Source: a virus
Length of the DNA: 64,000 nt
Strand: one strand, 5' to 3'
Virus record (IMG/VR): IMGVR_UViG_3300036766_002288
Span: 64,001 to 128,000 of that record
The translations under genes and the position numbers were made by a program. Below the pieces are notes generated by a model that saw only the letters and a list, made by a program, of their open reading frames with translations, ran no database searches and was not told the origin of the DNA. This document shows, piece by piece, positions 2,709-17,837 of this stretch. How positions within the stretch are numbered: position 1 is the stretch's first letter; each line of letters begins with the position of its first letter.

Positions 2709-2713
2709 GTTGG

Positions 2714-2725
2714 GTTCTTTGACAA
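2714..2725 (+). promoter_or_regulatory. boxA-like Nus antitermination element
   Basis: GTTCTTTGACAA resembles rrn boxA (GCTCTTTAACAA / GTTCTTTGAAAA), located between terminator and first tRNA. Confidence 0.6.
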
Positions 2726-2740
2726 TTTGGCTAGATTCTT

Positions 2741-2823
2741 GGTAGGTTCGGCATTGGCAAGCCAGCTTATTTCGAAAATAAGTAAACCGAAAGGTTTTGA
2801 GAATTCAACTTTCTCACCTACCG
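2741..2823 (+). tRNA. tRNA-Ser(CGA)
   Basis: GGTAGGT/ACCTACC acceptor, G73, CTTAT-TTCGAAA-ATAAG, long variable arm. Confidence 0.9.
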
Positions 2824-2852
2824 CTATACCTTAGTTGTACTGACTAAGGAAA

Positions 2853-2938
2853 GGGTGCTGTTCCACACGCTTGTCTGTAAAACAAGTGCCATTAATATGT
2901 GTGGTGGATGGCGATGGGTTCAAATCCTACGGTGCCCA
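2853..2938 (+). tRNA. Atypical D-armless tRNA-Tyr(GTA)-like RNA
   Basis: GGGTGCT/GGTGCCC acceptor (3 G.U), A73, GCTTGT-CTGTAAA-ACAAGT, TTCAAAT T-loop; only 9 nt in place of the D-arm. Confidence 0.65.
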
Positions 2939-2945
2939 CTTGAAA

Positions 2946-3030
2946 TGTAGCGTTTGGGCATTGGCAAGCCCCACTGACTGTAAATCAGCCGCCCTATGGG
3001 CATTGTAGATTCGACTCCTGCACGCTGCAC
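2946..3030 (+). tRNA. tRNA-Tyr(GTA)
   Basis: TGTAGCG/CGCTGCA acceptor, CTGA-CTGTAAA-TCAG, variable arm, TTCGACT T-loop. Confidence 0.85.
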
Positions 3031-3036
3031 TGACTT

Positions 3037-3125
3037 GGAGTAAATTGAAAGTGGCTATTCTAATCACTCCGCTAAAGTGACAGGTGGGGAAACCCGCCTT
3101 GTGAGTTCGACGCTCACTTACTCCG
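3037..3125 (+). tRNA. tRNA-Ser(GCT)
   Basis: GGAGTAA/TTACTCC, G73, TCACT-CCGCTAA-AGTGA (C at 33), long variable arm. Confidence 0.85.
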
Positions 3126-3190
3126 CTTCAATAAATTTTCCAAAAATTTATTGAACGGTTACTCTTGTATTATTATACAAGGAGTAATCT

Positions 3191-3742
3191 ATGAAAAATT
3201 TAGAAGTCGAAATTATGACATTAAGGGAAGATGGGCATTCTTACAACGCCATAGCAAAAAAACTAAATTGTTCTAAAGGCACAATTAGTTATTATTGCGG
3301 TGAAGGACAAAAACAAAAAAGTAAAACAAGGATTCAGAATAGAAGAAAAAATACTGTAATTTCGAAACGTGTTGAAAACTTTCAAATTGATAGAAAAATA
3401 AGAGACAAATCTGAAGATTTTCAACGGGAAAGAATAATTGTTAAGAGTAAAACTCGTTTAGGCAAACGGTCTTTGACATTTACTTGGAGAGATGTAATTG
3501 ATAAATTCGGATGGGAAACAATATGTTATCTAACTGGAAGGGCTATAAATTTAAGAGAGCCGAAAACTTATCAGTTTGACCATATACATCCTTACGGCAA
3601 AGGAGGAAGTTCAACTTTAGATAATTTAGGTATTCTTATTAAAGAAGTAAATCAAGCTAAGGCAGACATGACCGTTGAAGAATTTTTAAATCTATGTAAA
3701 GACGTTTTGGAATATAATGGCTATGAAGTAAAACGTTTGTAA
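3191..3742 (+). CDS. HNH homing endonuclease with N-terminal HTH
   Basis: HTH LREDGHSYNAIAKKLNCSKGTISYY; CYLTG...FDHIHP..KGG....NL......VNQAK. Confidence 0.85.
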   Translation: MKNLEVEIMTLREDGHSYNAIAKKLNCSKGTISYYCGEGQKQKSKTRIQNRRKNTVISKRVENFQIDRKIRDKSEDFQRERIIVKSKTRLGKRSLTFTWRDVIDKFGWETICYLTGRAINLREPKTYQFDHIHPYGKGGSSTLDNLGILIKEVNQAKADMTVEEFLNLCKDVLEYNGYEVKRL

Positions 3743-3760
3743 ATGGAAGCTTCCGCTTAT

Positions 3761-3834
3761 GGCACAGTAGGCAATTAGCAGACCACTTTCGCTTAAAACG
3801 AGAGATGCTGTCAGTGCAAATCTGACCTGTGCTA
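3761..3834 (+). tRNA. tRNA with Leu(TAA) anticodon, short variable loop
   Basis: GGCACAG/CTGTGCT, A73, CTTTCG-CTTAAAA-CGAGAG, T-loop TGCAAAT. Confidence 0.85.
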
Positions 3835-3838
3835 CTTT

Positions 3839-3912
3839 GGCGACGTAGGCAATTAGCAGACCACTTAGACTCAGACTCTGAGATGCTGTCAGTGCAAGTC
3901 TGACCGTCGCTA
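3839..3912 (+). tRNA. tRNA with Leu(CAG) anticodon, short variable loop
   Basis: GGCGACG/CGTCGCT, CTTAGA-CTCAGAC-TCTGAG, T-loop TGCAAGT. Confidence 0.85.
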
Positions 3913-3918
3913 CTTTTT

Positions 3919-3992
3919 GGCAACGTAGGCAATTAGCAGACCACTTTCTTTCAAACGGAGAGATGCTATGGGTGCGAGTCCCATCGTTGCTA
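3919..3992 (+). tRNA. tRNA with Leu(CAA) anticodon, short variable loop
   Basis: GGCAACG/CGTTGCT, CTTTCT-TTCAAAC-GGAGAG, T-loop TGCGAGT. Confidence 0.85.
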
Positions 3993-4175
3993 CTATGATA
4001 CCTAGACGTTTCAGAATACTATCTTCGTCCTCAATTATGACAGAATTAGGGATCAAAGACACCTATGGTGTTTTCTTTCCTGACTTTGGCACATTCATTA
4101 TAATGTCTGAAGAAAGAGGAATAGATGAGTTTGATGGTTGTCCCGAAGATGTTGAGTGGTTGGACTAGATAGTAT

Positions 4176-4922
4176 ATGGCTATTTTCCTAGAACATGTGA
4201 ATAAGCGAGATTTAAATAAAAGATTATTTGAAACTTTTGGCAAGTACAAAGTCTTCATTGTAGACGGCCAAGCCATTAGAAAACTTAATCTAACTGACCA
4301 TGAGTTTACTGATTCCGCCATCCATGCTACCTTTCCTAAATTAATACCAGATAAGGAAATATGGATAGATGATGTAATCAAACCGAATGAAAGATTTATA
4401 TTGATAAGTAATTTACTATCATTATACAAGTATTTAAGTAAAGAATCCTTGGACAAAGCTTATGATAAAGCATTGAAAAAAGAAAAGTCGATGAGGGAAA
4501 AGGTAGACAACGTAAGATTACATCCAGAAAAAACGAATGAAAGAGCGTCACCGAAGGTTTACAAGAGTCTATATGGTAAGATTGGAGATGTTAAGATTTG
4601 GTTGGTAGATGGGGAATACGTAAGAGATAAGTATAAGACAGATTATACCGAAGGTGGACACGATTACGTATACAAATGGATTCCACACAATGAAATTTGG
4701 ATTGAGTCCACAATGCATAAGTCTGAAATGCCTTTGATCGTTTTACATGAATTTGTGGAAAGAACATTGATGAAGACCAAGGGAATAGAGTATGATAAGG
4801 CACATACGATTGCATCGAAAGTGGAATTTGCAAAAGAAGATAAGTTTGATAGGAACGATGTTTTATCCATGACTGAGGATAAGGCATTGAAGATGGACGA
4901 GACGCGAGTGGTTAGCAACTGA
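4176..4922 (+). CDS. Hypothetical protein with internal domain duplication and HExxE motif
   Basis: (V/W)xVDGxxxR...IPxxEIWI occurs twice; LHEFVERTLM..H in the second copy. Confidence 0.75.
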   Translation: MAIFLEHVNKRDLNKRLFETFGKYKVFIVDGQAIRKLNLTDHEFTDSAIHATFPKLIPDKEIWIDDVIKPNERFILISNLLSLYKYLSKESLDKAYDKALKKEKSMREKVDNVRLHPEKTNERASPKVYKSLYGKIGDVKIWLVDGEYVRDKYKTDYTEGGHDYVYKWIPHNEIWIESTMHKSEMPLIVLHEFVERTLMKTKGIEYDKAHTIASKVEFAKEDKFDRNDVLSMTEDKALKMDETRVVSN

Positions 4923-4977
4923 TTTTGAAAATCAGGGGACCGAAAGGTTCTGTGGGTTCGAATCCCATCTCGATCCG
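4895..4977 (+). tRNA. tRNA-Ser(TGA), bulged acceptor stem; overlaps 3' end of upstream CDS
   Basis: GGACGAG/CTCG[A]TCC, G73, CTGAT-TTTGAAA-ATCAG, variable arm, TTCGAAT. Confidence 0.8.
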
Positions 4978-4980
4978 CTT

Positions 4981-5067
4981 GGAGCGTTGGCAGAGTGGCT
5001 GAATGCGCTAGTCTTGAAAACTAGAGTCCCCTCACGGGGACCGAGGGTTCAAATCCTTCACGCTCCG
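4981..5067 (+). tRNA. tRNA-Ser(TGA)
   Basis: Canonical: GGAGCGT/ACGCTCC, CTAGT-CTTGAAA-ACTAG, long variable arm. Confidence 0.95.
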
Positions 5068-5115
5068 TACAATAAAATTATCATAATTTTTATTGAACCC
5101 TAACTATGTTAGGGC

Positions 5116-5640
5116 ATGAAAGAACAAATATTAAAACTCCGTGCAGAAGGTTTGTCTTATAGGGAAATCTGTGCCCGATTAGACTGCTCAAAAAGTGTAG
5201 TGTCCTACCATTGTGGGGATGGACAAAAAGTAAAAACTAGGATTAGGGCACAAAAAAGACGAGGCAGGGCGGTTGTAGATAATAAAATTTATAGATTCAA
5301 AAATAAAAAAGCCTTGAGAGACAAAACGAACGATTTCCAACGAAGAGAAGGGGGCAAGCTTAAAATTAGAAAAATTATTTTTAATTATGAAGATGTAATG
5401 CAAAAATTTGGAGAAACCCCTATATGCTATTTAACGGGAAGAGAAATAAATTTAGAAGACACAAAAAACTATCACTTTGACCATATTATACCAGCAACGC
5501 GCGGCGGCTCAAACGATATAGATAATTTAGGACTAGCGTGTAAAGAAGCAAATAAAGCTAAGTCAGATATGACAATAAATGAGTTTATACAAATTTGTAA
5601 AGAAGTATTAGAGCATAATGGTTACAGGGTAATTAAGTAA
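5116..5640 (+). CDS. HNH homing endonuclease with HTH (paralog of 3191-3742)
   Basis: LRAEGLSYREICARLDCSKSVVSYH; CYLTG..FDHIIP..RGGSN...NL...CKEANKAK. Confidence 0.85.
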   Translation: MKEQILKLRAEGLSYREICARLDCSKSVVSYHCGDGQKVKTRIRAQKRRGRAVVDNKIYRFKNKKALRDKTNDFQRREGGKLKIRKIIFNYEDVMQKFGETPICYLTGREINLEDTKNYHFDHIIPATRGGSNDIDNLGLACKEANKAKSDMTINEFIQICKEVLEHNGYRVIK

Positions 5641-5642
5641 TT

Positions 5643-5729
5643 GGACGGTTTGGACATTGGCAAGTCCCCTTAGTTGGAAACTAAGTACACCCGAAAGGGT
5701 GTGTAGAGTTCGAATCTCTAACCGCTCCG
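5643..5729 (+). tRNA. tRNA-Ser(GGA), bulged acceptor stem
   Basis: GGACGGT/ACCG[C]TCC, G73, CTTAG-TTGGAAA-CTAAG, long variable arm. Confidence 0.85.
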
Positions 5730-5734
5730 CTTAT

Positions 5735-5811
5735 GGCGCAGTGATGCAACCTTCGGCAGACATTCTTGACTTAGAATCAAGATTATATGGGTTCGAATCC
5801 CATCTGCGCTA
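5735..5811 (+). tRNA. tRNA with Leu(TAG) anticodon, short variable loop
   Basis: GGCGCAG/CTGCGCT, A73, CTTGA-CTTAGAA-TCAAG, variable loop ATTAT. Confidence 0.85.
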
Positions 5812-5827
5812 GTATAATAGTGAAAAT

Positions 5828-5910
5828 GCGGTAGTGGCGGAACGGTATACGCGCTTGCTTGAGGTGCAAGTCCCTTAAGTGGGATGTGGGTTCGACTCCC
5901 ACCTACCGCA
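5828..5910 (+). tRNA. tRNA-Leu(GAG), class II
   Basis: GCGGTAG/CTACCGC, CTTGC-TTGAGGT-GCAAG, long variable arm. Confidence 0.95.
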
Positions 5911-5912
5911 CT

Positions 5913-6155
5913 ATGAAAACTACATATTATCGACAATGCAAATTGCAGAAAAAGAACACCTTCCAAACCAGCTATATTCCAGAAGAATTTGCTGTTATGA
6001 ATAAGATTATTAAACTACGTGACAACAACGTATGGGATGATGGCTGGAAGGTCATCGCAGTTAGTTCTTCACGGCACGCAGATGATAACCTGCCTGACTC
6101 TCATTCTTCAATTAAGGCACATCGTAGGGCAACTGGTGATTCACAAAGGAAATAA
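5913..6155 (+). CDS. Hypothetical protein
   Basis: ATG immediately after tRNA-Leu(GAG); the ORF-track N-terminal extension is tRNA sequence. Confidence 0.6.
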   Translation: MKTTYYRQCKLQKKNTFQTSYIPEEFAVMNKIIKLRDNNVWDDGWKVIAVSSSRHADDNLPDSHSSIKAHRRATGDSQRK

Positions 6156-6156
6156 T

Positions 6157-6441
6157 ATGTGTTTCATATATGATGAATACGCCGAACTTTACAAAGAAAA
6201 AGACGTAAAGGCAAAAAAAGAACACAAATGTTCTGAATGCGCCAGAACTATCTTTAAAAATGAGACGTATCAATATATTTTCACAATATTTCAAGGTGAT
6301 GCGACCACTACAAAGATTTGTTCAGATTGCAAGGATAAAAGACAAAAAATACATGATATAGAGATTAGTCATGGATGTAGCGAAAATGAATCTTGGCCTC
6401 CTTTAGGCGAACTAAGGGAATATTTACAACATTATGAATGA
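6157..6441 (+). CDS. Small Zn-finger protein
   Basis: KxRKxHxCxEC...CxDC pattern. Confidence 0.65.
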   Translation: MCFIYDEYAELYKEKDVKAKKEHKCSECARTIFKNETYQYIFTIFQGDATTTKICSDCKDKRQKIHDIEISHGCSENESWPPLGELREYLQHYE

Positions 6442-6462
6442 TATATACTGTAAAGGAGTATC

Positions 6463-6660
6463 ATGGACAAGCGTGAATACCGACAACTAAAAAGGACTTT
6501 AAAAAAAGAAGGCAACAAAAAGGCACGAAAAAAACTTAAAAATGACTTAAGAGACAATCCTGAAGAAACCCATTGGTCAGAGATAGATTACGGCAACTGT
6601 AAGACCGAAGATATGAAAAAATACAGCAGAGGACATGAAGATGAATATAGGTCTATTTGA
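6463..6660 (+). CDS. Small basic hypothetical protein
   Basis: GGAG SD, in operon order. Confidence 0.55.
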   Translation: MDKREYRQLKRTLKKEGNKKARKKLKNDLRDNPEETHWSEIDYGNCKTEDMKKYSRGHEDEYRSI

Positions 6661-7210
6661 TATGGACGGTAGCTTAGCTGATTATGAAGGTCAACTAAGG
6701 AAGGATTTGACCAAATGTCTTGGTGAAGAAGATTTGAAAAAGTTCGATGAGTTAGGCATGTGGAAAGCTGACGACCAAGAACCATTTAAATCACTCATTA
6801 GACTGATTAAGAATCAACCTTGTTGGTGGAAGAATCTCCCAGTAATGCAGAAAGGACTGGATATTTTCCACCTTGCTGTGCAGATTGGTTTTAAGAACCA
6901 TATTTTAACTAAGGGTCCAAAACATTATCCAAGGGCGTGGAAAGAAAAAGTTGAATGGTCTCAGCATTTATTTGGCAAGGATATTGACATTCATATAACA
7001 TCGGATAAAGGGTTAGTTTACGGCAGATTTTTATATGACGATTATCCTGATTATATGTTAAAATGGCTTGGGAGGCGTCCAAGGGGTTTGGGTATTATGC
7101 CAGTGAACAATTTCAATAAGGATTTTAACCATCCACAGGTAATTAAATGGGATGGAATAAACTATGATGAAGTGAAGGAAGCGTTGATAAAATGTTTCAA
7201 TAGGGGCTAA
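6641..7210 (+). CDS. 5'(3')-deoxyribonucleotidase (NT5C/HAD family)
   Basis: LFDMDGSLADY, WWxNLP, ILTKGP, EKVEW, DK..V.G..LYDD. Confidence 0.85.
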   Translation: MNIGLFDMDGSLADYEGQLRKDLTKCLGEEDLKKFDELGMWKADDQEPFKSLIRLIKNQPCWWKNLPVMQKGLDIFHLAVQIGFKNHILTKGPKHYPRAWKEKVEWSQHLFGKDIDIHITSDKGLVYGRFLYDDYPDYMLKWLGRRPRGLGIMPVNNFNKDFNHPQVIKWDGINYDEVKEALIKCFNRG

Positions 7211-7231
7211 GTGGCAAAACGGTATACGCAG
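7205..7231 (+). pseudogene. 5' fragment of a class II tRNA-Leu
   Basis: GGCTAAGTGGCAAAACGGTATACGCAG aligns with the 5' 27 nt of the tRNA at 7752, then diverges into A-rich spacer. Confidence 0.65.
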
Positions 7232-7266
7232 AAATAAAAATTAAAACGTGTTTACTATATTAGTTG

Positions 7267-7749
7267 ATGAGAAAAAGAAAATGGAATGACGAGCAATTAA
7301 TAGAAGCTGTTAAAACAAGCAAATCGGTGATGGAAGTATTGAAAAAAATTGGCTTAGGTTTAAGTGGTGGCTCCCATGCTTTGGTAAAAATGAGGATTAA
7401 ACATCTTAAAATTGATAATTCTCATTTTACAGGAAAAGGATGGTGCAGAGGGGAAAAGCACGAGGAATTCATTAAGCGAGTACTTCAGTATCCTTTAGAA
7501 CAAGTTTTAGTCAGAGATTCAACTTATCAGAACACACATGCCTTGAAAAAAAGACTTATAAAAGAAGGATTATTAATAAACGAATGTTGTAATTGTAAAC
7601 TAACCACATGGCTCAATGAGCCTATCAGTTTACAATTACATCATAAAGATGGAGATAGATGTAATAATTTGATTGGAAATCTATCAATACTATGTCCAAA
7701 TTGTCATAGTCAAACATCTACATTTGCAGGTAAGAGTAAAAGAAAATAA
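7267..7749 (+). CDS. HNH homing endonuclease (second subfamily)
   Basis: WNDEQLIEAV..S.S..EVLKK.GL; CCNC..W....LQLHHKDGD..NN...NL..LCPNCHSQT. Confidence 0.9.
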   Translation: MRKRKWNDEQLIEAVKTSKSVMEVLKKIGLGLSGGSHALVKMRIKHLKIDNSHFTGKGWCRGEKHEEFIKRVLQYPLEQVLVRDSTYQNTHALKKRLIKEGLLINECCNCKLTTWLNEPISLQLHHKDGDRCNNLIGNLSILCPNCHSQTSTFAGKSKRK

Positions 7750-7751
7750 AC

Positions 7752-7832
7752 GGCCAAGTGGCGGAATGGTATACGCGGCACACTCAAAATGTGTTGTCCT
7801 TGGGCATGTGGGTTCGACTCCCACCTTGGCTA
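7752..7832 (+). tRNA. tRNA-Leu(CAA), class II
   Basis: GGCCAAG/CTTGGCT, GCACA-CTCAAAA-TGTGT. Confidence 0.95.
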
Positions 7833-7993
7833 CTTATGAATACAAGTCTCAAATATCATGAAAAGATTTGGAAAGAATCCAGTTTTTTAACAAAGATTAA
7901 ATTTATTTTTTTTGGTTCGATCATATTCATGATCTTAATCGTTGGGTATTGTTGGGACAATGGAATTAAGAAGACATTGGATTTATTCAAAGA

Positions 7994-8419
7994 ATGAGCG
8001 TATTTCTATATAATTTTGAGCTTTTAACATGGATGCAATGGAAGATAAACTATCTTCCAGGCATTAGGGTTCAATGTGATTTCAGCAAGATTAATGCTAC
8101 ACCAGCGGTTCATATTGCAACTACGACAGATCAAATACGTTATCCTTGGTATGAAAATGGTGATTGGCGGGATGGGACTCCGTTGTGGTTCAAAGTTGGT
8201 GGTGGCCAGGTATTATGGCGGGGGCCTGCTGTAAGATATAAAGGTGTTTATTTAATTTTAGATGGGTGTCATAGGCTTCTTGACTTACAGCCAAGTATTG
8301 TTATAATGGATTATATTGATTTGAAGCAGGAAGAAATTTGTTATTTTAGTGACCTTTTAGGGATGTGGAACAATGACAATCCAAGAAGCGGCTGGTTTTT
8401 TGGTAAAACACCTGAATGA
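7994..8419 (+). CDS. Hypothetical protein, ParB/Srx-like motif
   Basis: YLILDGCHRL resembles the ParB-N DGHHR motif. Confidence 0.5.
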   Translation: MSVFLYNFELLTWMQWKINYLPGIRVQCDFSKINATPAVHIATTTDQIRYPWYENGDWRDGTPLWFKVGGGQVLWRGPAVRYKGVYLILDGCHRLLDLQPSIVIMDYIDLKQEEICYFSDLLGMWNNDNPRSGWFFGKTPE

Positions 8420-8561
8420 TCCAGAAACATTTATTGTTTCTGTTCGGGATAATGAAATCTTTGTAGACGTTAATTGGATTTATCGTAAGTATGAAATAGA
8501 TCAATTAGGCGGCAGTTGGAACGGGTTTCCAGTGAAAACAGGTCGCATAAGTTGTTGGTAA
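8373..8561 (+). CDS. Small hypothetical protein
   Basis: ORF in operon order. Confidence 0.5.
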   Translation: MTIQEAAGFLVKHLNDPETFIVSVRDNEIFVDVNWIYRKYEIDQLGGSWNGFPVKTGRISCW

Positions 8562-8779
8562 GCAGCAATCGTGGCGGGTAGTGAGCATAGCAGGGGCGAA
8601 AACGCAAATATTCCGCGAACGAAGGACTGGGCGAGTGAGTGGTGAGCGATCTTTCTTTATTCATGGATGAATAAGTGGCTTATTAGAGGCGAAGTTCATC
8701 TAACTATGACAACCAGAAAGAGCGGCGGATATTCTAATCGGCGGTATCAAAAGGCGTGACACCTGCATAGTCGATTGAT

Positions 8780-8861
8780 GGCCAAGTGGTGGAACGGTAT
8801 ACACAGCAGACTTAAAATCTGCCGCCCGTTGGGCTTGCGGGTTCAACTCCCGCCTTGGCCA
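8780..8861 (+). tRNA. tRNA-Leu(TAA), class II
   Basis: GGCCAAG/CTTGGCC, GCAGA-CTTAAAA-TCTGC. Confidence 0.95.
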
Positions 8862-9003
8862 CTATATGTCTTTCATAATAAATTTAACCTTTCTGCCAGT
8901 ATCAATATTTGCATACTTACTATTCCAAAAATGGTATAAACCAATTACAATTCCAGGCATACTATATCATTACATTGAAACTGGTAAATGGGGAAACTAG
9001 CCA

Positions 9004-9567
9004 ATGGAAAGAACTGAACTAACTGATGGCGGATACATATTGTATCAACCAGATTTCTATAATACAAAAATCGCAGATAATCTCTTCAACTTGTTACTAG
9101 ATGTTCCCTGGAAACAAGAGACATTTTCTTGGGGCAAATTTCCTAGACTCACATCTTATTACGCCGATGAAGGTGTAAAATATGAATATTCTGGAGTCAC
9201 CCACAAAGCTTTGGTATGGCCAGGAATTCTCTCAGCGGTAAAAGATAAAACTCAACAAGTTGTTGGTGAGAAATTTAACAGTCTATTGTTAAATTTCTAC
9301 AGGGATGGTGCGGATTCTATTGGCTGGCATTCAGATGATGAGAAAGAATTAGGAATAAATCCAATCATTGCATCTATTTCATTGGGTGCTGAAAGAACAT
9401 TCAATGTTAGGCACAAAAGAACTAAGGAAAAGTGGTCTATAGTTTTAAAGAATGGAAGTTTAATAGTTATGGGTGGTACAATGCAACATCATTGGCAGCA
9501 TTGTGTGCCAAAGACAACCAAGCCAGTTTTTGCAAGAATAAACCTTACTTTTAGGAACATTTTATGA
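9004..9567 (+). CDS. alkB: AlkB-family 2OG-Fe(II) dioxygenase (ALKBH2/3-like)
   Basis: PRLTSYY, NSLLLNFYRDGADSIGWHSDDE (HxD), HWQHCVPK, RINLTFR. Confidence 0.92.
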   Translation: MERTELTDGGYILYQPDFYNTKIADNLFNLLLDVPWKQETFSWGKFPRLTSYYADEGVKYEYSGVTHKALVWPGILSAVKDKTQQVVGEKFNSLLLNFYRDGADSIGWHSDDEKELGINPIIASISLGAERTFNVRHKRTKEKWSIVLKNGSLIVMGGTMQHHWQHCVPKTTKPVFARINLTFRNIL

Positions 9568-9962: not shown

Positions 9963-12900
9963 TACCTTTTTAATATAAATGCCATTCGTTGCTAGCTCAA
10001 AAGTTAAATACTCAATATATTCTTTAGCTGATTTTAGATTCCAACCCAATGCTTCTCTAGCTAGTTTTATTGCTTGAATCTTATCTCCCTGTTCTATTTT
10101 GCTCTCCATGTCCATTATTGTTTTTTTGTCTAAAAACGGCTTGCCAGGCATATCATGGTAGTGCTGAACCATTATTTCATGTGCTTTTTCTTGAGATAAA
10201 GGAGAAATGGCATAAATTGTTTTAGCATCAAAATATTTTTGTATTGCTAATTCTTTTAAATAGGTTTTTTTGATATCAAACAATTGATTTGGACTATAAT
10301 TAGCACCTAATGCGGCGTTGACCTTAGTTAAAATATCTTCAATTGGATAACTAGGGTTGTAATATTTAGTAGAAATAATTGCCCTCGCTACTTTCAAATC
10401 CATTGGGAAAAGGAATGCCTTCAATGGATTAAAGCTGTTTTTCAAAGAATCAATAATTTTAGCACCTGTATCTATGGGAGCAGGAGCAGTTGCTAGTTCC
10501 ATATCATCTGCTTCGATAGCATAACTACCGCCACTAGGAAACTTAACACTATAACCATGTTCAAAATCTGATTGTGGAATTTTGTAAACAATTGTTCCAA
10601 CCATACCTTTGTGATAACCATTTATGATCTTAACTGGATCGCCATTTTTGAATTCTTTTTTAGGTTTTGAAGACAACTCAATATTCACCACCTTAATAGG
10701 TGCCTCGCCACCATCATCAAACTTAATATGCACCATGTTATCTTTGTAAGCGCCTGTATAAGTTTTAGTTATATGACCAGTCAGACCTGCATACATTCCA
10801 TCTTTGACTTTTACAAAGTCTCCGACTTTAAAATCCTTTTTAGACCCCGCCGCCACTGGTGCTACTAATTGCAGATTGCCTGCATGTACCAAATATTCAT
10901 ATCCAGCACCGCCAGACTTTATTTTATAAAGATTATCACCTACAATTTTCTCTTTAACGACGCCAGTTATTCCATTATGTTCACCGCCAGTAACTTTAAC
11001 GGTTGCCCCAATTTCAAACGTTTTTGACTGACCCTTCTTGCCTGTTATTTCGAACTGATTTGGTGCTAAAATTTGATCTTGTTTGCCACCGAAGGCAATG
11101 TCTAAAGCAATAGTATAATTTGTTCCGTGGTTCACCTTAACGGTGCCTGTAAAACCTGCAAAACTACCATCTATTACCTTAACAATGTCCCCCACTTCTG
11201 GGGTGGGCGATTTATCTAATTCGATATCATTTTTATAGAAAAGATACGGGGAATCGGATGACCCTAATGTAACCATATAATTCCCATTTTCAGTCTTGTG
11301 CTTAAATTTACCTTTTTTGCCTGTGTGCAAACCATTTTTAACTTTAATAGGATCGCCTGCCTTAAAATCTTCTTTTTCCTTAACAGAATCATCCTTCTTC
11401 AAATCCCCCTGAGAGAAATACAAATTTTGCTTTTTACTATCAAGGGGACTTTCTACGGCGACAATCCACACACCTTCAGTTGAAGTTGAGGTTACAATCT
11501 CACCTTTCTTGCCCTTGTAATCACCATTAGTTATGATTACAGGGTCGCCTACTTTATATGATGGTCTTGTTTTTTCATCCTTTTGCAAATCGTAGTTTGA
11601 ATAGGGAATTAGGTTTACAAGACCAAGATCGACTTGATAGGGATATGGGTCTTCGGCGGCTTTTATATTTTTGATAAAACCTTTCATGCCTTTATGACTT
11701 CCATATTTGATAGTAACATGGTCGCCTACTTTAAGGCCCAGAAGCGACTTGCCACCGCTAGCGGAATCGTCTTTCTTGAAGTAATCTGAGGAATACCATT
11801 GTTCATCGGCTTCCCCACCATGCGGCATCGTTACAAGAACACTCCATGAATGCCCATTATAACTTTTGAGAACACCTTTTGAGCCGTTATAAGTGCCATG
11901 AGTGATGATTACATGGTCCCCTACCTTATTCCCTTTTTCGTCTGGGAAGCTGCTGGCTTTCTTTTCAACAACTTCAAATCTATGTCTCTTAAAAGCCTTT
12001 GTAGGCTTATCTGCGAACTCGACGTTGAAATAAGGAAAATCGTATTTGTAAATCTTATCTATGACGGTTCCAGTTTGGCCAACATATCCACTAGAACCAC
12101 CTATAATCTTAACCTTGTCACCAATATCTACATCAGAAGGATGTGGGGGCTGATTAATTGGGGTTCCTGTGTATGTCGGCTGTGGAACAGGTTTACCCTT
12201 ATTAACCTTGGCCCAATATTCTTGATTAACTTGTCCCATAGAGTATGGGGCTGGTCCATAATTGCCAGTTACAGGGCTTGATACTGATTGATTTATAATA
12301 TGTTGACTAGCATATTGTTCTGGGGTAATATCTTTAGGCTTACTTTCCCAATAAGTATCATTAGGATAGTTTTTTTCATGTTCAGCTTTCTTTTTCTCAT
12401 ATTGAGATTGCTGCATCTGATTATATATCTCTGCCTTTTTCTTTAGAATTTCAGGCCAATCTTTCTCAAAGTCCAAAAAAGTTTTGCCTGTCTTGAGCTT
12501 AATACCAATTTTGGCCACTTCCCGCATTGAAGGACTAATATGCTCAAACATTTCGTGGGGAGAAACTAGATCACGTTTATGGTCAAGTGATTTCTGAATC
12601 CAATCATACTTATTATCTTTCCTATAACTTTTTAATTTAGTGAATACACTACCAGTATTATGTTGTAAGTCGTAAACATGGTCAATGTAGGCGATTATCT
12701 TATTTGGCGTTTCGGCATCATTTAGGTGTGTCCAACCATCAGCAATACCTCCCCAGGCTTTGCCACCATATGAACTACCCCATTTTGCATTATAAAATAG
12801 CCAACTGGCTAGCTTTGCCCATTCTTCATCTGTTCCACCTGCATGTTTCAGAGCTTTGTATGAAGTGGTATAACCATCATCACTGTTTTTAGCTGTAGTC

Positions 12901-13454
12901 GGTATATGGATACGATCCATTATTTCTGCTGTTTCTGGATTTTGTAAATTTCTTAAAGCGAGTGTGTAATTCCTTAGTAAACTTGCTTCTTTTGGACCGA
13001 GTTCCTTTTTCACTCTTTCAATTAAAAGTTTAGGCTTATTTCTTTCACTATCATATAAGTGTCTTAATTCGGCGGAAATAGAAAACATAACTGCTTCCAA
13101 TAGTTCCTTTTTAAGGGCTGGCAGTAGTTTATTGCCTACTTCATATAGAGCATGATAGAATTTGTCCTCTACGGTCATGGACATATCACCATAATGTCTC
13201 GTATCTGGTGGAAGTCCTTTTTCTTCTCTTTCTTTATTCTGAAGTGCATTAGCTTTTTCTGTATCTTCTCCACCAAAATCCATTGGTTTTAGATACATGT
13301 GAATACCAGGCGGAAGAAGATATTCGAGCATGTAAAAGTCGTACATTTGCTGTTGTCTATCTTCTGGGACATGGTATGTCCATGAACCAAATACACCTTC
13401 TAGTATTGGATTATAATCTTTTTTATTTAACCAATTAGCGAACTTGTCTAGCAT
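9954..13454 (-). CDS. Giant protein: unknown N-terminal domain + 9 KOW repeats + C-terminal L7/L12-CTD-like motif
   Basis: Nine (F/K)xxGDxVxIxxGxxxGxxG repeats; C-terminal GDKIQAIKLAREALGWNLKSAKEYIE; likely start MLDKFANWL with TAAATA 5 nt upstream. Confidence 0.8.
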   Translation of the reverse strand: MLDKFANWLNKKDYNPILEGVFGSWTYHVPEDRQQQMYDFYMLEYLLPPGIHMYLKPMDFGGEDTEKANALQNKEREEKGLPPDTRHYGDMSMTVEDKFYHALYEVGNKLLPALKKELLEAVMFSISAELRHLYDSERNKPKLLIERVKKELGPKEASLLRNYTLALRNLQNPETAEIMDRIHIPTTAKNSDDGYTTSYKALKHAGGTDEEWAKLASWLFYNAKWGSSYGGKAWGGIADGWTHLNDAETPNKIIAYIDHVYDLQHNTGSVFTKLKSYRKDNKYDWIQKSLDHKRDLVSPHEMFEHISPSMREVAKIGIKLKTGKTFLDFEKDWPEILKKKAEIYNQMQQSQYEKKKAEHEKNYPNDTYWESKPKDITPEQYASQHIINQSVSSPVTGNYGPAPYSMGQVNQEYWAKVNKGKPVPQPTYTGTPINQPPHPSDVDIGDKVKIIGGSSGYVGQTGTVIDKIYKYDFPYFNVEFADKPTKAFKRHRFEVVEKKASSFPDEKGNKVGDHVIITHGTYNGSKGVLKSYNGHSWSVLVTMPHGGEADEQWYSSDYFKKDDSASGGKSLLGLKVGDHVTIKYGSHKGMKGFIKNIKAAEDPYPYQVDLGLVNLIPYSNYDLQKDEKTRPSYKVGDPVIITNGDYKGKKGEIVTSTSTEGVWIVAVESPLDSKKQNLYFSQGDLKKDDSVKEKEDFKAGDPIKVKNGLHTGKKGKFKHKTENGNYMVTLGSSDSPYLFYKNDIELDKSPTPEVGDIVKVIDGSFAGFTGTVKVNHGTNYTIALDIAFGGKQDQILAPNQFEITGKKGQSKTFEIGATVKVTGGEHNGITGVVKEKIVGDNLYKIKSGGAGYEYLVHAGNLQLVAPVAAGSKKDFKVGDFVKVKDGMYAGLTGHITKTYTGAYKDNMVHIKFDDGGEAPIKVVNIELSSKPKKEFKNGDPVKIINGYHKGMVGTIVYKIPQSDFEHGYSVKFPSGGSYAIEADDMELATAPAPIDTGAKIIDSLKNSFNPLKAFLFPMDLKVARAIISTKYYNPSYPIEDILTKVNAALGANYSPNQLFDIKKTYLKELAIQKYFDAKTIYAISPLSQEKAHEIMVQHYHDMPGKPFLDKKTIMDMESKIEQGDKIQAIKLAREALGWNLKSAKEYIEYLTFELATNGIYIKKVSG

Positions 13455-13483
13455 TGTAATATTTATGTTCTTTTCTCTCAATT

Positions 13484-14347
13484 TTGTTGGTAAATACTAA
13501 AATGAGTGTGTCACTTGATGAGTTAGTTAATTGTGATGGGCAATTAGTCTATGCTATTGATGAAGAAGAGAACGTCTACATAGGTATTTTGTATTATAAA
13601 CCAGAGAACGGTGAATTTTCGGTTGAAATTTGGGAAGATTCGTGCTGCGCGATGGCAATAATGACTCCAGACGACCTTATTTACTTAATTTGTAATAATC
13701 CTAGCGGAACAGTAATAACATTCTTTGACCCAGACTTGTTTGATTTAAATACGACTTGGACAGTTCCTGATGGTATTTTTTCTGTATTTGTCGAATGCTG
13801 GGGCGCGGGTGGATATGGCAATACTAATATTAGTGGTGCATTTGGAGGTGGTGGAGGTGGTGGGGGTGCTTACGCTGCTAGTATAGTGTCAGTAATGCCT
13901 GGAGATGTTTATAGTATAACGATTACAAATACTAATTGTAATCCTAACTTCGTTTCAACCATATTTGGGTCAAATTTAGTTACTGCTGCTGCGGGGAGTT
14001 GTGCTAATGCTCTTGGCATAGGTGGGGCAGGCGGGCAAGTGGCAGATAGTATAGGCACTACTAGATTTGCTGGTGGAAATGGTGGGGATGGGGACACATC
14101 TGTTGGAGGTAGTGGCGGCGGTGGTGGGGCATGTGCAGGGCCAGGTGGACCAGGAAATGCTGGGGCAATTGTCACTGGTGGTGTCGGAGATGGTGATTTA
14201 GCAGGCAGTGGCGGGGCAGGAGCGGCATTGCCTGCAACTCCTGCCGATTTTGGTGGACTTTATGGTGGAGGTGGAGGTGGTGGAGCAAGTGGTGGAGCAA
14301 TAGAAGGAGCAAATGGACCCCCAGGAATTATTCGTTTAACATATTGA
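13484..14347 (+). CDS. Glycine-rich-domain virion-type protein
   Basis: WTVPDGIFSVFVECWGAGG..GGGGGAYA..GGGGG..G..GIIRLTY module. Confidence 0.7.
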   Translation: MLVNTKMSVSLDELVNCDGQLVYAIDEEENVYIGILYYKPENGEFSVEIWEDSCCAMAIMTPDDLIYLICNNPSGTVITFFDPDLFDLNTTWTVPDGIFSVFVECWGAGGYGNTNISGAFGGGGGGGGAYAASIVSVMPGDVYSITITNTNCNPNFVSTIFGSNLVTAAAGSCANALGIGGAGGQVADSIGTTRFAGGNGGDGDTSVGGSGGGGGACAGPGGPGNAGAIVTGGVGDGDLAGSGGAGAALPATPADFGGLYGGGGGGGASGGAIEGANGPPGIIRLTY

Positions 14348-14371
14348 CATTCTTGATTTTTGTGCTATATA
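14344..14371 (+). promoter_or_regulatory. Sigma70-type promoter upstream of HNH/tRNA block
   Basis: TTGACA-N16-TATATA with TG extension. Confidence 0.55.
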
Positions 14372-14379
14372 TTAATTAG

Positions 14380-14910
14380 ATGAAATACACCAAGGAACTA
14401 CTTGAGGCCATAGTAAAAGAAAGCTTATCAGTAGCCCAAGTTATAAAGAAATTAGGACTAAAACAAGCTGGTGGTACGCATCATTACATTTCAAAAAAGC
14501 TTAAGTGCTTTGAAATTAATGTTGAGCATTTTACTGGACGCGCAAGTAACCACGGAGACATGCATAAAGGTGGCCCAGCTAAAAGAACGTGGCAAGAAAT
14601 ACTAGTTTTAAGAGAAGATGGTAAAAGACAAAGAGCATTTGTATTAAGACGTGCATTGATTGAATCTGGAAGCAATTACGAATGCAGTATATGTAATATT
14701 AAAGAATGGTTTGGCAAGACAATAATTCTAGAAGTAGACCATCTAAATGGCGATTATTGTGATGACAGAAAAGAAAATATAAGATTTATGTGCCCGAATT
14801 GTCATAGTCAATCACCTAAATATTGTGGCAGTAAGGGTTACACAACTATAACTAGCACTGCCAAATCGCAGAAAGAAAGAAGGAAGAGAGTACAGTTGGC
14901 CAAGTGGTGA
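14380..14910 (+). CDS. HNH homing endonuclease (paralog of 7267-7749); stop lies inside the next tRNA
   Basis: YTKELLEAIV..S.S..QVIKKLGL; CSIC..W....LEVDHLNGD..D....N.RF.CPNCHSQ. Confidence 0.9.
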   Translation: MKYTKELLEAIVKESLSVAQVIKKLGLKQAGGTHHYISKKLKCFEINVEHFTGRASNHGDMHKGGPAKRTWQEILVLREDGKRQRAFVLRRALIESGSNYECSICNIKEWFGKTIILEVDHLNGDYCDDRKENIRFMCPNCHSQSPKYCGSKGYTTITSTAKSQKERRKRVQLAKW

Positions 14911-15001
14911 AATGGCATACACGCAGGTCTTATTGGTTAAACAACCAGCAATAGAAGCCTGTGCCCGTAAGGGCGTGCGGGTTCAAGTCCCGCCTTGGCC
15001 A
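14898..15001 (+). tRNA. Class II tRNA-Leu (probably TAG) with 21-nt insertion in the anticodon loop
   Basis: GGCCAAG/CTTGGCC, CAGGT/GCCTG stem enclosing a 28-nt loop CTTATTGGTTAAACAACCAGCAATAGAA. Confidence 0.8.
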
Positions 15002-15005
15002 CTTT

Positions 15006-15341
15006 ATGAGTCGATACGGATTTGATTTAGATGGAACTCTTGATGTTCCTTCCATAGCACAACTCGCCAATGATTTATATGACGCAGGACACGAAATATA
15101 CATAGTCACAGGTGGGTTTGGCGATCATGGAGAATGGACAATTTCTGAGCGCGAAAAGAAATTAGCCAGACTTGGTGTTAAATACACAGAAATCATTCGT
15201 TGTTTAAAACCCTCTTTTGAAGAAATTGGTAAAGAGAAAGGTCGTATTTGCAAAGAAAGAAAAATTTCTTTGTTATTTGACGACTCAGAAACTTATATCC
15301 AGCAATCTAAAGGGGCGGTCCAATGTCTGAAAGTGATCTAA
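15006..15341 (+). CDS. HAD-superfamily small hydrolase
   Basis: GFDLDGTL, IVTGG, KG..C......LFDDS. Confidence 0.7.
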   Translation: MSRYGFDLDGTLDVPSIAQLANDLYDAGHEIYIVTGGFGDHGEWTISEREKKLARLGVKYTEIIRCLKPSFEEIGKEKGRICKERKISLLFDDSETYIQQSKGAVQCLKVI

Positions 15342-15553
15342 AACAACTTATTCTTGAAAAAGGCGGCGTAGCTGCCATTAAACATTACCGTGAAATCAAT
15401 AAATGCAATTTAAAAGAAGCAGTCCAAGCAATAGATTCACTTGGCCCATTGCCACGTATCTTTAAATCAACTACTCCATGTCCAGATTGTGGCAAATTGC
15501 TTAGAACAGATTTAGCAAAACAATGTTTTGAATGTGGAAAGGATTGGCATTAA
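15323..15553 (+). CDS. L7/L12-CTD-like motif + Zn ribbon protein
   Basis: AAIKHYREINKCNLKEAVQAID; CPDCG..LRT..AKQCFECG. Confidence 0.6.
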   Translation: MSESDLKQLILEKGGVAAIKHYREINKCNLKEAVQAIDSLGPLPRIFKSTTPCPDCGKLLRTDLAKQCFECGKDWH

Positions 15554-15874
15554 ATGGAACTTCATGGTTCAGATTTAGTTTTTGAGAATGTGAAAGTACC
15601 AATTTCAGAAGATTTGGTTATACCTATAATCAAAACTCACTGGCCTGAGTTGGTCTACGAAGCAATGATGGAAAATGGTGATCTGCACTTGTTCATGCAC
15701 CCAAATCAACACGCTGAAGAATCTTGGGACGATGAAGGTTGGTCTGAAGAAAATGACATAACTTTGATTTACATGATTTGGGATGAATCGAAGGCTGAAC
15801 TGACTTTTGTGATTGACGATGAGAAGAAAAACAAGTATATCGTAGATGACATACAGAAAGGTCTTGGGTTCTAA
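15554..15874 (+). CDS. Acidic hypothetical protein
   Basis: ORF abutting upstream stop. Confidence 0.6.
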   Translation: MELHGSDLVFENVKVPISEDLVIPIIKTHWPELVYEAMMENGDLHLFMHPNQHAEESWDDEGWSEENDITLIYMIWDESKAELTFVIDDEKKNKYIVDDIQKGLGF

Positions 15875-15877
15875 ATC

Positions 15878-16315
15878 ATGCGATGGCTCTTACTTGCTTT
15901 ACTCTGCGTAGGTTGTGCAGAACTACCTTCTGCCAAAGAAAAAGAAGAAGAATTGCAAATACGTAAAAAAAGACACGATGCTGAGTGTGAGGAATGGCGG
16001 ACGAGAATTTTTGATGTAGTTAAGGTTTCGACGGAAGAAGATAAAAAATACACTGAGTCTATGCTGCATTGGTTGAATACTAATCTAGATGATCCTGATA
16101 TTGTTCAGTGGATTAGTAAGGAATACTCCAGATGCAAAAAGTATGGTACGTCAAAAACTGAAATTCTTGTAAAGATTAGGGTAATTGATAGTCAAGGGAT
16201 CAAAAAGATTCACGAGTATTATTTCATATTCGACTTTGACAAAATCCAAAATGCCTACCCCAGATATACTCACCCAAGAAAAATTACCATTATACCACCA
16301 CCCTACTTAGGTTAA
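15878..16315 (+). CDS. Putative lipoprotein
   Basis: MRWLLLALLCVGC lipobox. Confidence 0.65.
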   Translation: MRWLLLALLCVGCAELPSAKEKEEELQIRKKRHDAECEEWRTRIFDVVKVSTEEDKKYTESMLHWLNTNLDDPDIVQWISKEYSRCKKYGTSKTEILVKIRVIDSQGIKKIHEYYFIFDFDKIQNAYPRYTHPRKITIIPPPYLG

Positions 16316-16872
16316 CATGGTTGACTACGAAGGATTTCACCTTAATCAGGCAAGTGCTTTTCTCCAGTTTATCCGCACTGGCGAGAAGTTTGGGTATAGT
16401 AAATGTTGTGTATTTCAATTTGCATCTGACTCAATATCCGATAAATTGCCGTTTAAACTACGTGGTCTCATAAAAAGAGAAGATGGGAAAATCTACGTTC
16501 CATGTGACTCCTGTACAGGGTTAAGATTATGAAAGATGCTGTAACCATCTACTATTGTGGTCAAGGTTGTATCTATCGGTGTCCAGAGTGCCATAAGGCG
16601 GATAGATTGCCCTATGACAGGCCACCTGCTACAAAAACATGTCGTTTTTGTGAAAAAGAATTTGAACTCATACAAGTAAGTTCAATGAACGATGAATTGT
16701 ATGGAGTCATTCAAGAAATTAATGCTCCTGATGCTTATTGGGAAGATTAATATGTTTTGCTGGCTATTTGGACATACAATATACGTTGAAGATATGGGCG
16801 GCACTCTTATAGAATGCTGCGAGTGTTGTAATTGGGTTGGCAGATATGTAAATTACGATATAGAGGTTAAAC

Positions 16873-17361
16873 ATGAACGAGACCCTGATAAGGAAAGAAA
16901 AACTTCCGAAGGGACTTAGCTATCCTTTACAGACACAGGATATTGTTAATGGATTACATACTGAGTCCTTGGCCATTTTTTACCGTTATGATTGTAGTAA
17001 CCCAGGAAAAATGAACAAATGGACTGTAATAGATTTATTTGACTTACATTGTTATCCTGATAAAACTAGGACTCTCGTAGGTAATAATTTTTCTATAGGT
17101 ATCACTTCAATCGAATCTAAGTTAAGGAAAAAATTTAGAGAAATACTGTGTAAGGAAGTGTTGCCACTTGCAAAGACATGGCAGGAATTGAACAACAAGG
17201 GAAAAAATTTATCTGTTCATTATCGAGTATTTCAGGATGACTATCTAGGTTATGGCGGCATATATATGGAAGAAAACCGATATGGGCCTAAAAAGAAAAT
17301 CTTATATCGGAATGATAGCTTTAACATAGATGAAGATTTAAAGGTGATTTATGAAAAATAA
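16873..17361 (+). CDS. Hypothetical protein
   Basis: 162-aa ORF with GAGG SD. Confidence 0.6.
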   Translation: MNETLIRKEKLPKGLSYPLQTQDIVNGLHTESLAIFYRYDCSNPGKMNKWTVIDLFDLHCYPDKTRTLVGNNFSIGITSIESKLRKKFREILCKEVLPLAKTWQELNNKGKNLSVHYRVFQDDYLGYGGIYMEENRYGPKKKILYRNDSFNIDEDLKVIYEK

Positions 17362-17369
17362 CAAACTCC

Positions 17370-17708
17370 GTGGGTGCGAGAAGCATAAGTTTTTCTCACA
17401 CTACGGAGGTTTCTATGAAAAGGTGGCACGAAGAGTATAATGTCTTTCATCGTCAGTGGAAGATACATCGCAAGTCTCACGTTGAGTCTAATAAGGACTC
17501 AAGTAGAAATCGTATTGGCAAAGACCCATACGAAGTCGATTGTAGTTGCGATGAGCAGGTAGGTCGTTTCAGGAAAATGGATGCTTGGGATTGTGGCAAT
17601 CCACACTGTCAGGTGTGCCATTACAACAAATATCCTAAACGGGAATTGACAAATGGTGAAGTAAAGTCTAACATCTCTTTCAAGGAACAGTTGAAGGAAA
17701 GAGATTAG
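17370..17708 (+). CDS. Cys/His-rich hypothetical protein
   Basis: CGNPHCQVCH motif; true start probably the ATG after GGAGG. Confidence 0.55.
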   Translation: MGARSISFSHTTEVSMKRWHEEYNVFHRQWKIHRKSHVESNKDSSRNRIGKDPYEVDCSCDEQVGRFRKMDAWDCGNPHCQVCHYNKYPKRELTNGEVKSNISFKEQLKERD

Positions 17709-17713
17709 TTAGT

Positions 17714-17837
17714 GGCCGAATAGTCTAACGGTATGGCGGTAGAATTACATTACGTGGCTTTGGCTGAAAATGCCGATATTATAGTTTCCACATAATCCCT
17801 AATCTACAGATGGCGGGTTCAATTCCCTCTTCGGCCA
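17714..17837 (+). tRNA. tRNA (probably Val TAC) with 52-nt structured insertion in the anticodon loop
   Basis: GGCCGAA/TTCGGCC, A73, D-arm GTCTAACGGTATGGC, GTAGA/TCTAC stem enclosing 59 nt, T-loop TTCAATT. Confidence 0.75.

Follow-up and report, generated by a model that had tools for sequence, protein, structure and literature searches.

Serine, leucine and tyrosine tRNA genes sorted by class and preceded by a conserved Ser/Leu/Tyr-codon leader in a clade of very large phages

Gene content and conservation of the class II array

We analysed 64,000 nucleotides (nt) of phage DNA (IMG/VR virus record IMGVR_UViG_3300036766_002288, positions 64,001 to 128,000 of that record; this whole stretch is called the window), in which a block at 2741–17837 carries 16 transfer RNA (tRNA)-like genes, every one on the + strand. 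Five are serine genes (Ser; anticodons CGA, GCT, TGA twice and GGA), eight are leucine genes (Leu; TAA twice, CAG, CAA twice, TAG twice and GAG) and two are tyrosine genes (Tyr; GTA twice), and the array decodes all six Leu, six Ser and two Tyr codons; the remaining gene is of class I. The anticodon assigned 15 of the 16 to Leu, Ser or Tyr, the isotypes of the long-armed class II tRNAs, the exception being an insert-bearing gene at 17714. The 10 tRNAs that ARAGORN called (2741–8862, + strand) are exclusively Ser or Leu, while Rfam covariance models contributed the genes at 2947–3029, 5735–5811, 14898–15001 and 17714–17837, and the tRNA-Sec model that at 4895–4976. One further gene (2853–2938) was overlooked by both and was found from the sequence, with ARAGORN in mitochondrial mode recovering part of it. 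Together with a reading of the folds, these searches reproduced exactly the 16 genes and the anticodon list given in an initial annotation made from the DNA letters. A seventeenth candidate from a relaxed scan, ‘Val AAC’ at 7856–7934, was discarded as a false positive, with 24% GC, mismatched stems, a position within a small open reading frame (ORF) and no Rfam match. Fourteen genes are packed into 6.1 kb (2741–8861), and two outliers (14898 and 17714) lie past a minus-strand gene. Clustered and co-oriented, in a virus record and with phage-type genes nearby, the block fits the definition of a phage tRNA array.

A long variable arm (>10 nt, forming a stem–loop) is present in 11 of the 16 genes, namely the five Ser, the two Tyr and four Leu genes; it is absent from four Leu-anticodon genes (3761, 3839, 3919 and 5735) and from an Arg-like gene at 17714. 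Below, G0 denotes this window's phage, and G1, G2, W01, L028, L034 and L035 are labels of related lineages. The array opens with a long-armed tRNA-Ser(CGA) bearing G73 (2741–2823; 84% identical to its G1 orthologue), followed by a Tyr(GTA)-like gene (2853–2938) with a 7-bp acceptor stem, an anticodon arm of Tyr(GTA) type, a T-arm, a long variable region and a degenerate D-arm. The latter has no orthologue above 67% identity, is unique to this phage and may be a decaying duplicate; the long-armed tRNA-Tyr(GTA) beside it (2947–3029; A73) has orthologues of 75–77% identity in G2 and W01. Then come a long-armed tRNA-Ser(GCT) (3037–3125), a tandem run of three arm-less 74-nt Leu tRNAs (TAA, 3761–3834; CAG, 3839–3912; CAA, 3919–3992) and two Ser(TGA) genes, one of phage type (4895–4977; tRNA-Sec model, 32.6 bits; one-base bulge in the 3' acceptor strand) and one of bacterial type (4981–5067; found by ARAGORN and Rfam; G2 orthologue 91% identical), a pair of bodies that is also kept in G2. 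They are followed by a long-armed tRNA-Ser(GGA) (5643–5729) that shares the acceptor bulge found at 4895, a fourth arm-less Leu tRNA (TAG, 5735–5811, 77 nt, 51.5 bits, with a short variable region and a CCTTCGG mini-hairpin in the D-loop) and long-armed Leu tRNAs for GAG (5828–5910), CAA (7752–7832; G1 orthologue 93% identical) and TAA (8780–8861); the outlying Leu(TAG) gene at 14898–15001 is long-armed as well. The bulge of the two Ser genes falls between pairs 3:70 and 4:69, and because the gene at 5643 is the sole GGA isoacceptor of the array, it may be tolerated instead of being a defect. The initial annotation had each codon covered in different architectures, which holds for Leu TAA, CAA and TAG, Ser TGA and Tyr, but not for Leu CAG and GAG or Ser CGA, GGA and GCT.

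Relatives were found by IMG/VR searches with an AlkB-like protein at the array edge and with the protein just upstream. In five lineages a strictly class II array is preceded by a conserved leader ORF of Ser/Leu/Tyr codon bias, a terminator and a short motif. The 210-kb contig of G1 (flanking proteins 69–78% identical) carries the class II array plus the Arg-like gene; on the 341-kb contig of G2 (56–61% identical) 19 of the 21 tRNAs are Ser, Leu or Tyr, and so are all 14 on the 39-kb contig of L028 (flanking protein 55% identical). Most window genes have same-anticodon orthologues of 80–93% identity in other lineages, and the gene order is shuffled; since these orthologues persist despite the differing order, the tRNA set is old and does not reflect a recent duplication burst. 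With a Ser/Leu/Tyr-only array in five lineages, orthology by anticodon and a conserved leader of its own, the block is the coherent functional module that had been proposed. Strict class sorting is specific to this clade. In the ordinary T4-like array of phage Gravdalen, Tyr, Ser and Leu occupy positions 1, 8 and 16 of 17. Two tRNAs of 80–83 nt in L035 (13967–14049 and 14268–14347) have a Cys (GCA) anticodon and may be long-arm tRNAs with a non-class-II anticodon.

The window's record totals 187,011 bp, with tRNAs confined to this block and a transfer-messenger RNA (tmRNA) near 178.8 kb. Because this 187-kb contig is 37% complete (CheckV) and terminal repeats are absent, the lack of other tRNAs on it was discarded as evidence, and it cannot be claimed that the phage has only class II tRNAs. 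The nearest complete genome reached, LR756511.1 (595 kb, uncultured phage), gave 65 ARAGORN tRNA calls covering all 20 amino acids. At 427.7–437.5 kb, homologous to the window, it has 12 consecutive genes, six Leu, two Tyr and four Ser, and nothing else; the other 17 amino acids are served by about 50 class I genes at 233–291 kb, 136–204 kb from the class II array, and a single stray long-arm Leu(TAA) lies at 6.3 kb. A 12-gene run among 13 long-arm genes in 65 occurred in 0 of 1e6 permutations (analytic p ~2e-10). The restriction to class II isotypes noted in the initial annotation is thus real and far beyond chance, with the caveat that four of the window's Leu-anticodon genes are armless. 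Its further claim, that the phage replaces only one tRNA class, fails on the ~65 tRNAs for all 20 amino acids in the complete relative and on the incompleteness of the contig. As side observations, the class I region of LR756511.1 ends with two tRNAs of 75–76 nt to which ARAGORN assigns Ser anticodons (GGA and CGA; 290614–291073); the short CGA tRNA and a Thr(TGT) tRNA of similar sequence (288341–288415) have an encoded 3' CCA, unlike the remaining tRNA genes, and a tRNA with a CTA anticodon (amber-suppressor-like) lies at 179588–179661.

The leader region

All features of the leader lie on the + strand. A promoter-like site at 2478–2505 (TTGACA, 16 nt, TAAGAT, with TG) matches the consensus, although such sites are no more numerous in the region than chance would give. 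It is followed by a 25-codon leader ORF, MFNLSVSLLSSLSSLLYSNAGRGTE (2571–2648), which is preceded by a purine-rich AAGGAA and lies 90 nt upstream of the first tRNA gene; 14 of its codons are for Ser, Leu or Tyr, sampling 9 of the 10 array anticodons. A strong intrinsic terminator with a 13-bp GC-rich stem and a T-run (2673–2710) stands between the leader and the first tRNA, and a 14-nt motif, CTTTGACAATTTGG (2717–2730), directly precedes that tRNA. The leader ORF, whose translation is predicted, is kept in G1, G2, W01 and L028 with differing codons and the same amino-acid bias. The terminator is conserved with compensatory changes in four relatives and is the sole strong + strand terminator in window positions 1–20000, none being found within the array. 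Each phage has a single exact copy of the motif, in every case ahead of the class II array, and the class I regions fetched contained none. The initial annotation had proposed a whole-genome check for other amino acids in separate arrays with their own leaders. Carried out on LR756511.1, it placed the other 17 amino acids in a separate region but gave no comparable leader–terminator there: in the 200 nt ahead of each class I tRNA of that genome, a crude screen found no terminator, with a finder that nevertheless detects each of the four class II leaders on which it was tried.

The consensus fold has the coding sequence at the 5' end of the leader paired with the stretch that directly follows the stop codon. 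When the RNA was folded up to the 5' arm of the terminator with the early codons masked, 9–12 of the 14 arm bases were paired, as against 5–7 without masking, in five of five lineages. In G1, G2, W01 and L028 the arm pairs with the segment just past the stop codon, and in the window's copy with a partner farther upstream. A riboswitch-like leader model at equilibrium was rejected, as the terminator forms under every masking and a co-transcriptional model alone works; because the equilibrium fold keeps the terminator, the argument for a switch is a kinetic one. Modelled in this way, the behaviour of the leader fits classical attenuation.

Arm-less leucine tRNAs, inserts and neighbouring genes

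The arm-less Leu family was examined in an alignment of ten members from three phages, in which MAFFT displaced the anticodon arm by one column and pairs were counted with structure-anchored coordinates. The structure of these tRNAs is under selection, with 169 of 170 stem cells paired and compensatory change at 13 of 17 pairs. All ten have A73, and U8–A14, A15–U48 and the Leu-type D-loop are retained; G1 and G2 members have the GG/TTC elbow, and in the window's copies G18>A covaries with U55>G (the Leu identity elements used here, A73, U8–A14, A15–U48 and the elbow, were taken from PMC2377443). The window's CAG copy is 96% identical to the TAG copy of G1. As judged from their sequences, the arm-less genes are working tRNAs derived from tRNA-Leu. 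The D-arm signature of the family was found in ~30 IMG/VR contigs, many of 100–340 kb, and 44 of 44 matches lie in Leu-anticodon tRNAs of 75–78 nt; the arm-less Leu set is a general feature of large phages and not a local hedge. We also took a census of tRNA lengths among distinct genes in ~40 phage loci: 73 of 108 Leu genes were of 80 nt or shorter and 35 were longer, with 0 of 53 Ser and 0 of 16 Tyr genes in the short group and all 53 and all 16 above 80 nt. Because the loci were selected for having short Leu tRNAs, the Leu figure is biased, unlike the zeros for Ser and Tyr. The CAG isoacceptor is available exclusively in the arm-less form in four lineages.

Enzymes of the leucyl-, seryl- and tyrosyl-tRNA synthetase types (LeuRS, SerRS and TyrRS; PF00133, PF00587 and PF00579) were not found in the four phages searched, the complete one included, and host synthetases would therefore have to charge these tRNAs. 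The LeuRS of A. aeolicus charges arm-deleted tRNA-Leu, with lower affinity (PMC2377443), and Streptomyces coelicolor has a natural type I tRNA-Leu that is charged by its single LeuRS and rejected by E. coli LeuRS (PMC6614811). CCA is not encoded in the window's tRNA genes, each of which is directly followed by C-T, and relatives encode a PolyA_pol-family (CCA-adding-type) nucleotidyltransferase. Very often an ATG stands 2–4 nt past the tRNA end (…N73 C T ATG), for example at 3993, 5911, 7833 and 8862, and also in L013 and L014; ORFs that start nearly at tRNA 3' ends recall mitochondrial tRNA punctuation and would yield nearly leaderless mRNAs. Leu, Ser and Tyr make up 18% of codons, with all of their synonymous codons in use, and the complete decoding set is therefore no fix for a few rare codons.

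Two genes are interrupted in the anticodon loop. The Leu(TAG) gene at 14898–15001 carries a 21-nt hairpin insert after U33; removing the 21 extra bases leaves the loop CTTAGAA of Leu(TAG), and the G1 orthologue, 88% identical, is without the insert. Inserts of 21–23 nt of this kind form a hairpin, ATTGGTTARACARCCA...GCAA, a very similar one being present in G1 Leu(TAA), the window's orthologue of which is uninterrupted; because G0 and G1 carry the insert in opposite genes, it seems to move between Leu tRNA genes (window 14898–15001; L013 9705–9811 and 14039–14122). The interrupted Leu(TAG) comes directly after an HNH gene and right before an ORF (~15006–15341, +) with a DLDGT motif and a weak polynucleotide kinase/phosphatase match (phrog_415, E = 3.6e-4), which may encode an RNA end-healing enzyme. 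The second interrupted gene, the class I tRNA at 17714–17837 (+), has a structured 52-nt insert whose core, GGCTGAAAATGCC, is shared with its G1 and G2 orthologues and constant in the three phages (window 17714–17837; L013 15755–15878; L020, G002 84482–84605), and the closing helix covaries among the three through compensatory changes. The initial annotation had read this gene as a probable Val. However, the 5' part of the loop that would give TAC is not conserved, and Val(TAC) is readable in two of the three orthologues, whereas a YCT anticodon is readable in all three; the ARAGORN call is Arg(TCT), and AGA and AGG account for 62% of Arg codons in this phage. As Arg(YCT) alone fits all three orthologues, Val(TAC) was dropped, and the comparison makes the gene most likely an Arg(YCU) tRNA. 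Four further insert-bearing tRNAs occur in LR756511.1, with inserts of 21–53 nt, two of which have AGCATACAAACA in common. A group I intron was rejected for the 21- and 52-nt inserts, as it needs ~200 nt or more and a conserved core, and no Rfam intron family matched. A search of the clade for RtcB as a splicing ligase did not find it, while RNA ligases of the Rnl1 and Rnl2 types are present; T4 Rnl1-type ligase genes lie a few kb from stray tRNAs, at 9009–9617 of LR756511.1 near the Leu(TAA) at 6.3 kb, and at G002 287153–287566 near Glu and Tyr tRNAs at 289.3 kb.

Four HNH ORFs, all on the + strand, finish less than 20 nt from tRNA 5' ends or overlap them: a helix–turn–helix (HTH)–HNH homing-type endonuclease at 3191–3742 (HNH_4, HTH_38) ends 19 nt before a tRNA, an HTH–HNH endonuclease at 5116–5640 (HNH_5, E = 8e-9) and an HNH endonuclease at 7264–7749 each end 3 nt before one, and an HNH endonuclease at 14380–14910 (phrog_10822, E = 1e-48) overlaps the 5' end of the next tRNA. 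SegB of T4 is likewise located within the T4 tRNA cluster (PMC2330249). An AlkB-like 2-oxoglutarate–Fe(II) oxygenase (9004–9567, +; E = 2.6e-35), kept at the array edge in relatives, may be an RNA or tRNA demethylase. Between the main array and the outlying tRNAs, the minus-strand ORF at 9954–13481 encodes a protein of 1175 amino acids (aa) that contains numerous KOW/SH3-like repeats and weakly matches the C-terminal domain of ribosomal L7/L12. Very glycine-rich repeat proteins with weak Gly_rich_2 matches surround the outlying tRNAs (18238–22821, −, 1527 aa; 13484–14347, +, 287 aa), and a local rise in GC to 0.47–0.49 coincides with the larger of these ORFs. The ORFs at 4176–4922, 7994–8419, 9564–9962 and 1260–2147 had no match in Pfam and PHROGs scans. 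A search for the host with an exact 24-mer of the bacterial-type Ser tRNA led to tRNA-Ser genes in two Planctomycetota metagenome-assembled genomes, 74–76% identical overall, which is too weak for a host assignment.

Interpretation and relation to known systems

On balance we lean towards reading the block as a demand-coupled class II tRNA supply operon with a Ser/Leu/Tyr-codon attenuator, within a near-complete phage tRNA set. The phage genome would be of roughly 500–600 kb, with its Leu, Ser and Tyr genes kept as one co-oriented unit. Transcription would begin upstream of the 25-codon leader, and the strong terminator would have to be read through for polymerase to reach the tRNAs. When decoding of Ser, Leu and Tyr codons is slow, a ribosome would stall early in the leader and leave its 5' half unable to pair with the post-stop segment; the freed segment would capture the 5' arm of the terminator, and polymerase would continue into the tRNA genes. 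The supply of class II tRNAs would in this way be coupled to demand. Maturation would probably be by host enzymes and the PolyA_pol-family nucleotidyltransferase, and we infer that the arm-less Leu tRNAs, like the others, would be charged by host synthetases.

Several observations weigh against this supply operon. A class I region in this phage is deduced from one relative, the phage's own contig being 37% complete; two more fragments, 42% and 68% complete, are likewise without such a region. The sorting leaks in L035 (45% identity), where one Phe and two long ‘Cys GCA’ tRNAs stand among 12 class II genes, and in L034 (40% identity), where the exceptions are two Gln and one Lys. Most other large phages that carry these arm-less Leu tRNAs have arrays of mixed class, and sorting by class is therefore no general requirement. 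Charging of the arm-less Leu tRNAs by the host is not assured, since E. coli LeuRS rejected type I tRNA-Leu. The equilibrium fold retains the terminator whatever is masked, and promoter-like sites inside the block could bypass the leader.

Some of the same facts could arise from counter-defence, in which a host weapon recognises the long variable arm and the phage replies with a self-regulated flood of class II tRNAs and with arm-less Leu versions that escape. Long-arm-dependent bacterial toxins do exist: MenT3 needs the long variable loop of tRNA-Ser (PMC11162799), and the abortive-infection toxin AbiEii likely prefers class II tRNAs (bioRxiv 10.64898/2026.01.19.700257); phage tRNAs are also known to neutralise tRNA-directed defences (PMC10264068, PMC11555353, PMC11464382). 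The length census is what would be expected if the arm were shed wherever charging allows, a leader that senses Ser, Leu and Tyr decoding alone implies a pool that varies independently, and the clade encodes both types of RNA ligase. But the short-Leu count is biased by the choice of loci, and the absence of short Ser and Tyr genes is explicable by synthetase constraint alone. Most phages with arm-less Leu tRNAs are not sorted by class, and extra substrate is a weak reply to a catalytic toxin. A bacterial Schlafen was rejected as the class II nuclease, as the only one characterised cleaves the anticodon arm of class I tRNAs (PMC13056530), and an AbiEii-type toxin searched for in these phages was not encoded. 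We therefore regard counter-defence as possible but doubtful. Unlikely, in our estimate, is a combined account in which long-arm tRNAs are separately attacked by AbiEii/MenT-like toxins, the clade's operon senses Ser/Leu/Tyr decoding and resupplies the class that is hit and large phages shed the Leu arm for escape; arm loss would then be limited to Leu because it is the sole class II tRNA whose synthetase can dispense with the arm.

That the class II genes came together by historical accident, through local duplication and anticodon change, with the block then inherited and the leader an ordinary regulatory region, we judge to be decidedly unlikely. Anticodons do switch between near-identical copies, as in the G0 CAG and G1 TAG genes; D-arms are common to Ser and Tyr genes, the short Leu genes stand in tandem, sorting is leaky in distant relatives, other phages have mixed arrays, and HNH endonucleases could carry tRNA genes as cassettes (PMC2330249). 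Membership is nonetheless strict despite the shuffled order and flanking proteins merely 55–78% identical, orthology by anticodon across phages means that the genes are not recent paralogues, and the amino-acid bias of the leader matches the downstream genes and is kept with different codons in five lineages. It is highly improbable, lastly, that the arm-less tRNAs carry another amino acid and thereby alter the meaning of Leu codons in phage genes. LeuRS ignores the anticodon, so that identity depends on the tRNA body, and both the rejection of type I tRNA-Leu by the E. coli enzyme (PMC6614811) and the exclusively arm-less supply of CAG in four lineages would suit such recoding. Yet the body keeps the Leu-type D-loop, A73, U8–A14 and A15–U48, without G3:U70 or other obvious foreign identity marks; long and short copies of the same anticodon coexist, so recoding would make decoding ambiguous; and LeuRS enzymes that charge arm-deleted (PMC2377443) or type I (PMC6614811) tRNA-Leu are known.

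Phage tRNA arrays have so far been explained by codon supply or by escape from anticodon nucleases, in both cases isoacceptor by isoacceptor. That the genes here are organised and apparently regulated by structural class points to tRNA architecture itself as a physiological or immunological variable in infection. The arm-less Leu tRNAs are a natural experiment on the purpose of the long arm and offer substrates for studying the specificity of LeuRS, MenT/AbiE and modifying enzymes. If the combined account of attack, resupply and arm loss were true, it would be the first axis of defence and counter-defence set by tRNA architecture and not by the anticodon; a leader peptide that gates tRNAs, if true, would bring a new type of gene within the reach of classical attenuation. 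We found no description in the literature of arm-less phage Leu tRNAs or of class-sorted phage arrays, and the layout appears to be undescribed.

Known systems resemble parts of this arrangement. The analogues cited in the initial annotation are weak: human SLFN11 makes a class-selective antiviral attack on type II tRNAs but is a eukaryotic protein, and the one bacterial Schlafen characterised acts on class I tRNAs. MenT3 and AbiEii (DUF1814 nucleotidyltransferases), which are better precedents, show that bacterial toxins select tRNAs by the long arm; they are, however, host proteins that extend the CCA end, MenT3 is largely Ser-specific, and a link to this operon would be conjecture. The tRNAs of T5 that act against PARIS, retron Eco7 and anticodon nucleases (PMC10264068, PMC11555353, PMC11464382) differ structurally from those of the host, as do the copies here, but evasion of the T5 type involves single isoacceptors with differences in the anticodon loop, whereas here a whole class is grouped and the variable arm is lost. 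The type I tRNA-Leu of Streptomyces coelicolor and of animal mitochondria (PMC6614811) has a short variable loop and coexists with type II tRNA-Leu, as here, one LeuRS charging both; the Streptomyces case is a single isoacceptor, whereas the phages have a complete set of four or five anticodons, conserved in ~30 contigs, in which A73 and a Leu-type D-loop are kept. Structural class goes unmentioned in a 2019 survey of viral tRNA clusters (PMC6409571). The arrays of large phages (T4, T5, KVP40-type and huge phages with up to ~65 tRNAs) are, like the block, co-oriented, interleaved with small ORFs and homing endonucleases, and supplement or replace host tRNAs. Those known arrays mix isotypes, whereas here the genes fall into separate regions according to structural class, with a leader of its own for the class II region. 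Leader-peptide attenuators control amino-acid operons (trp, leu, his and ilv), and the block shares with them a codon-enriched short ORF and an intrinsic terminator; a putative upstream competitor for the 5' arm of the terminator would act according to where the ribosome sits. Such attenuators gate biosynthetic enzymes, whereas the putative one described here would gate tRNA genes, for three amino acids that share a tRNA architecture.

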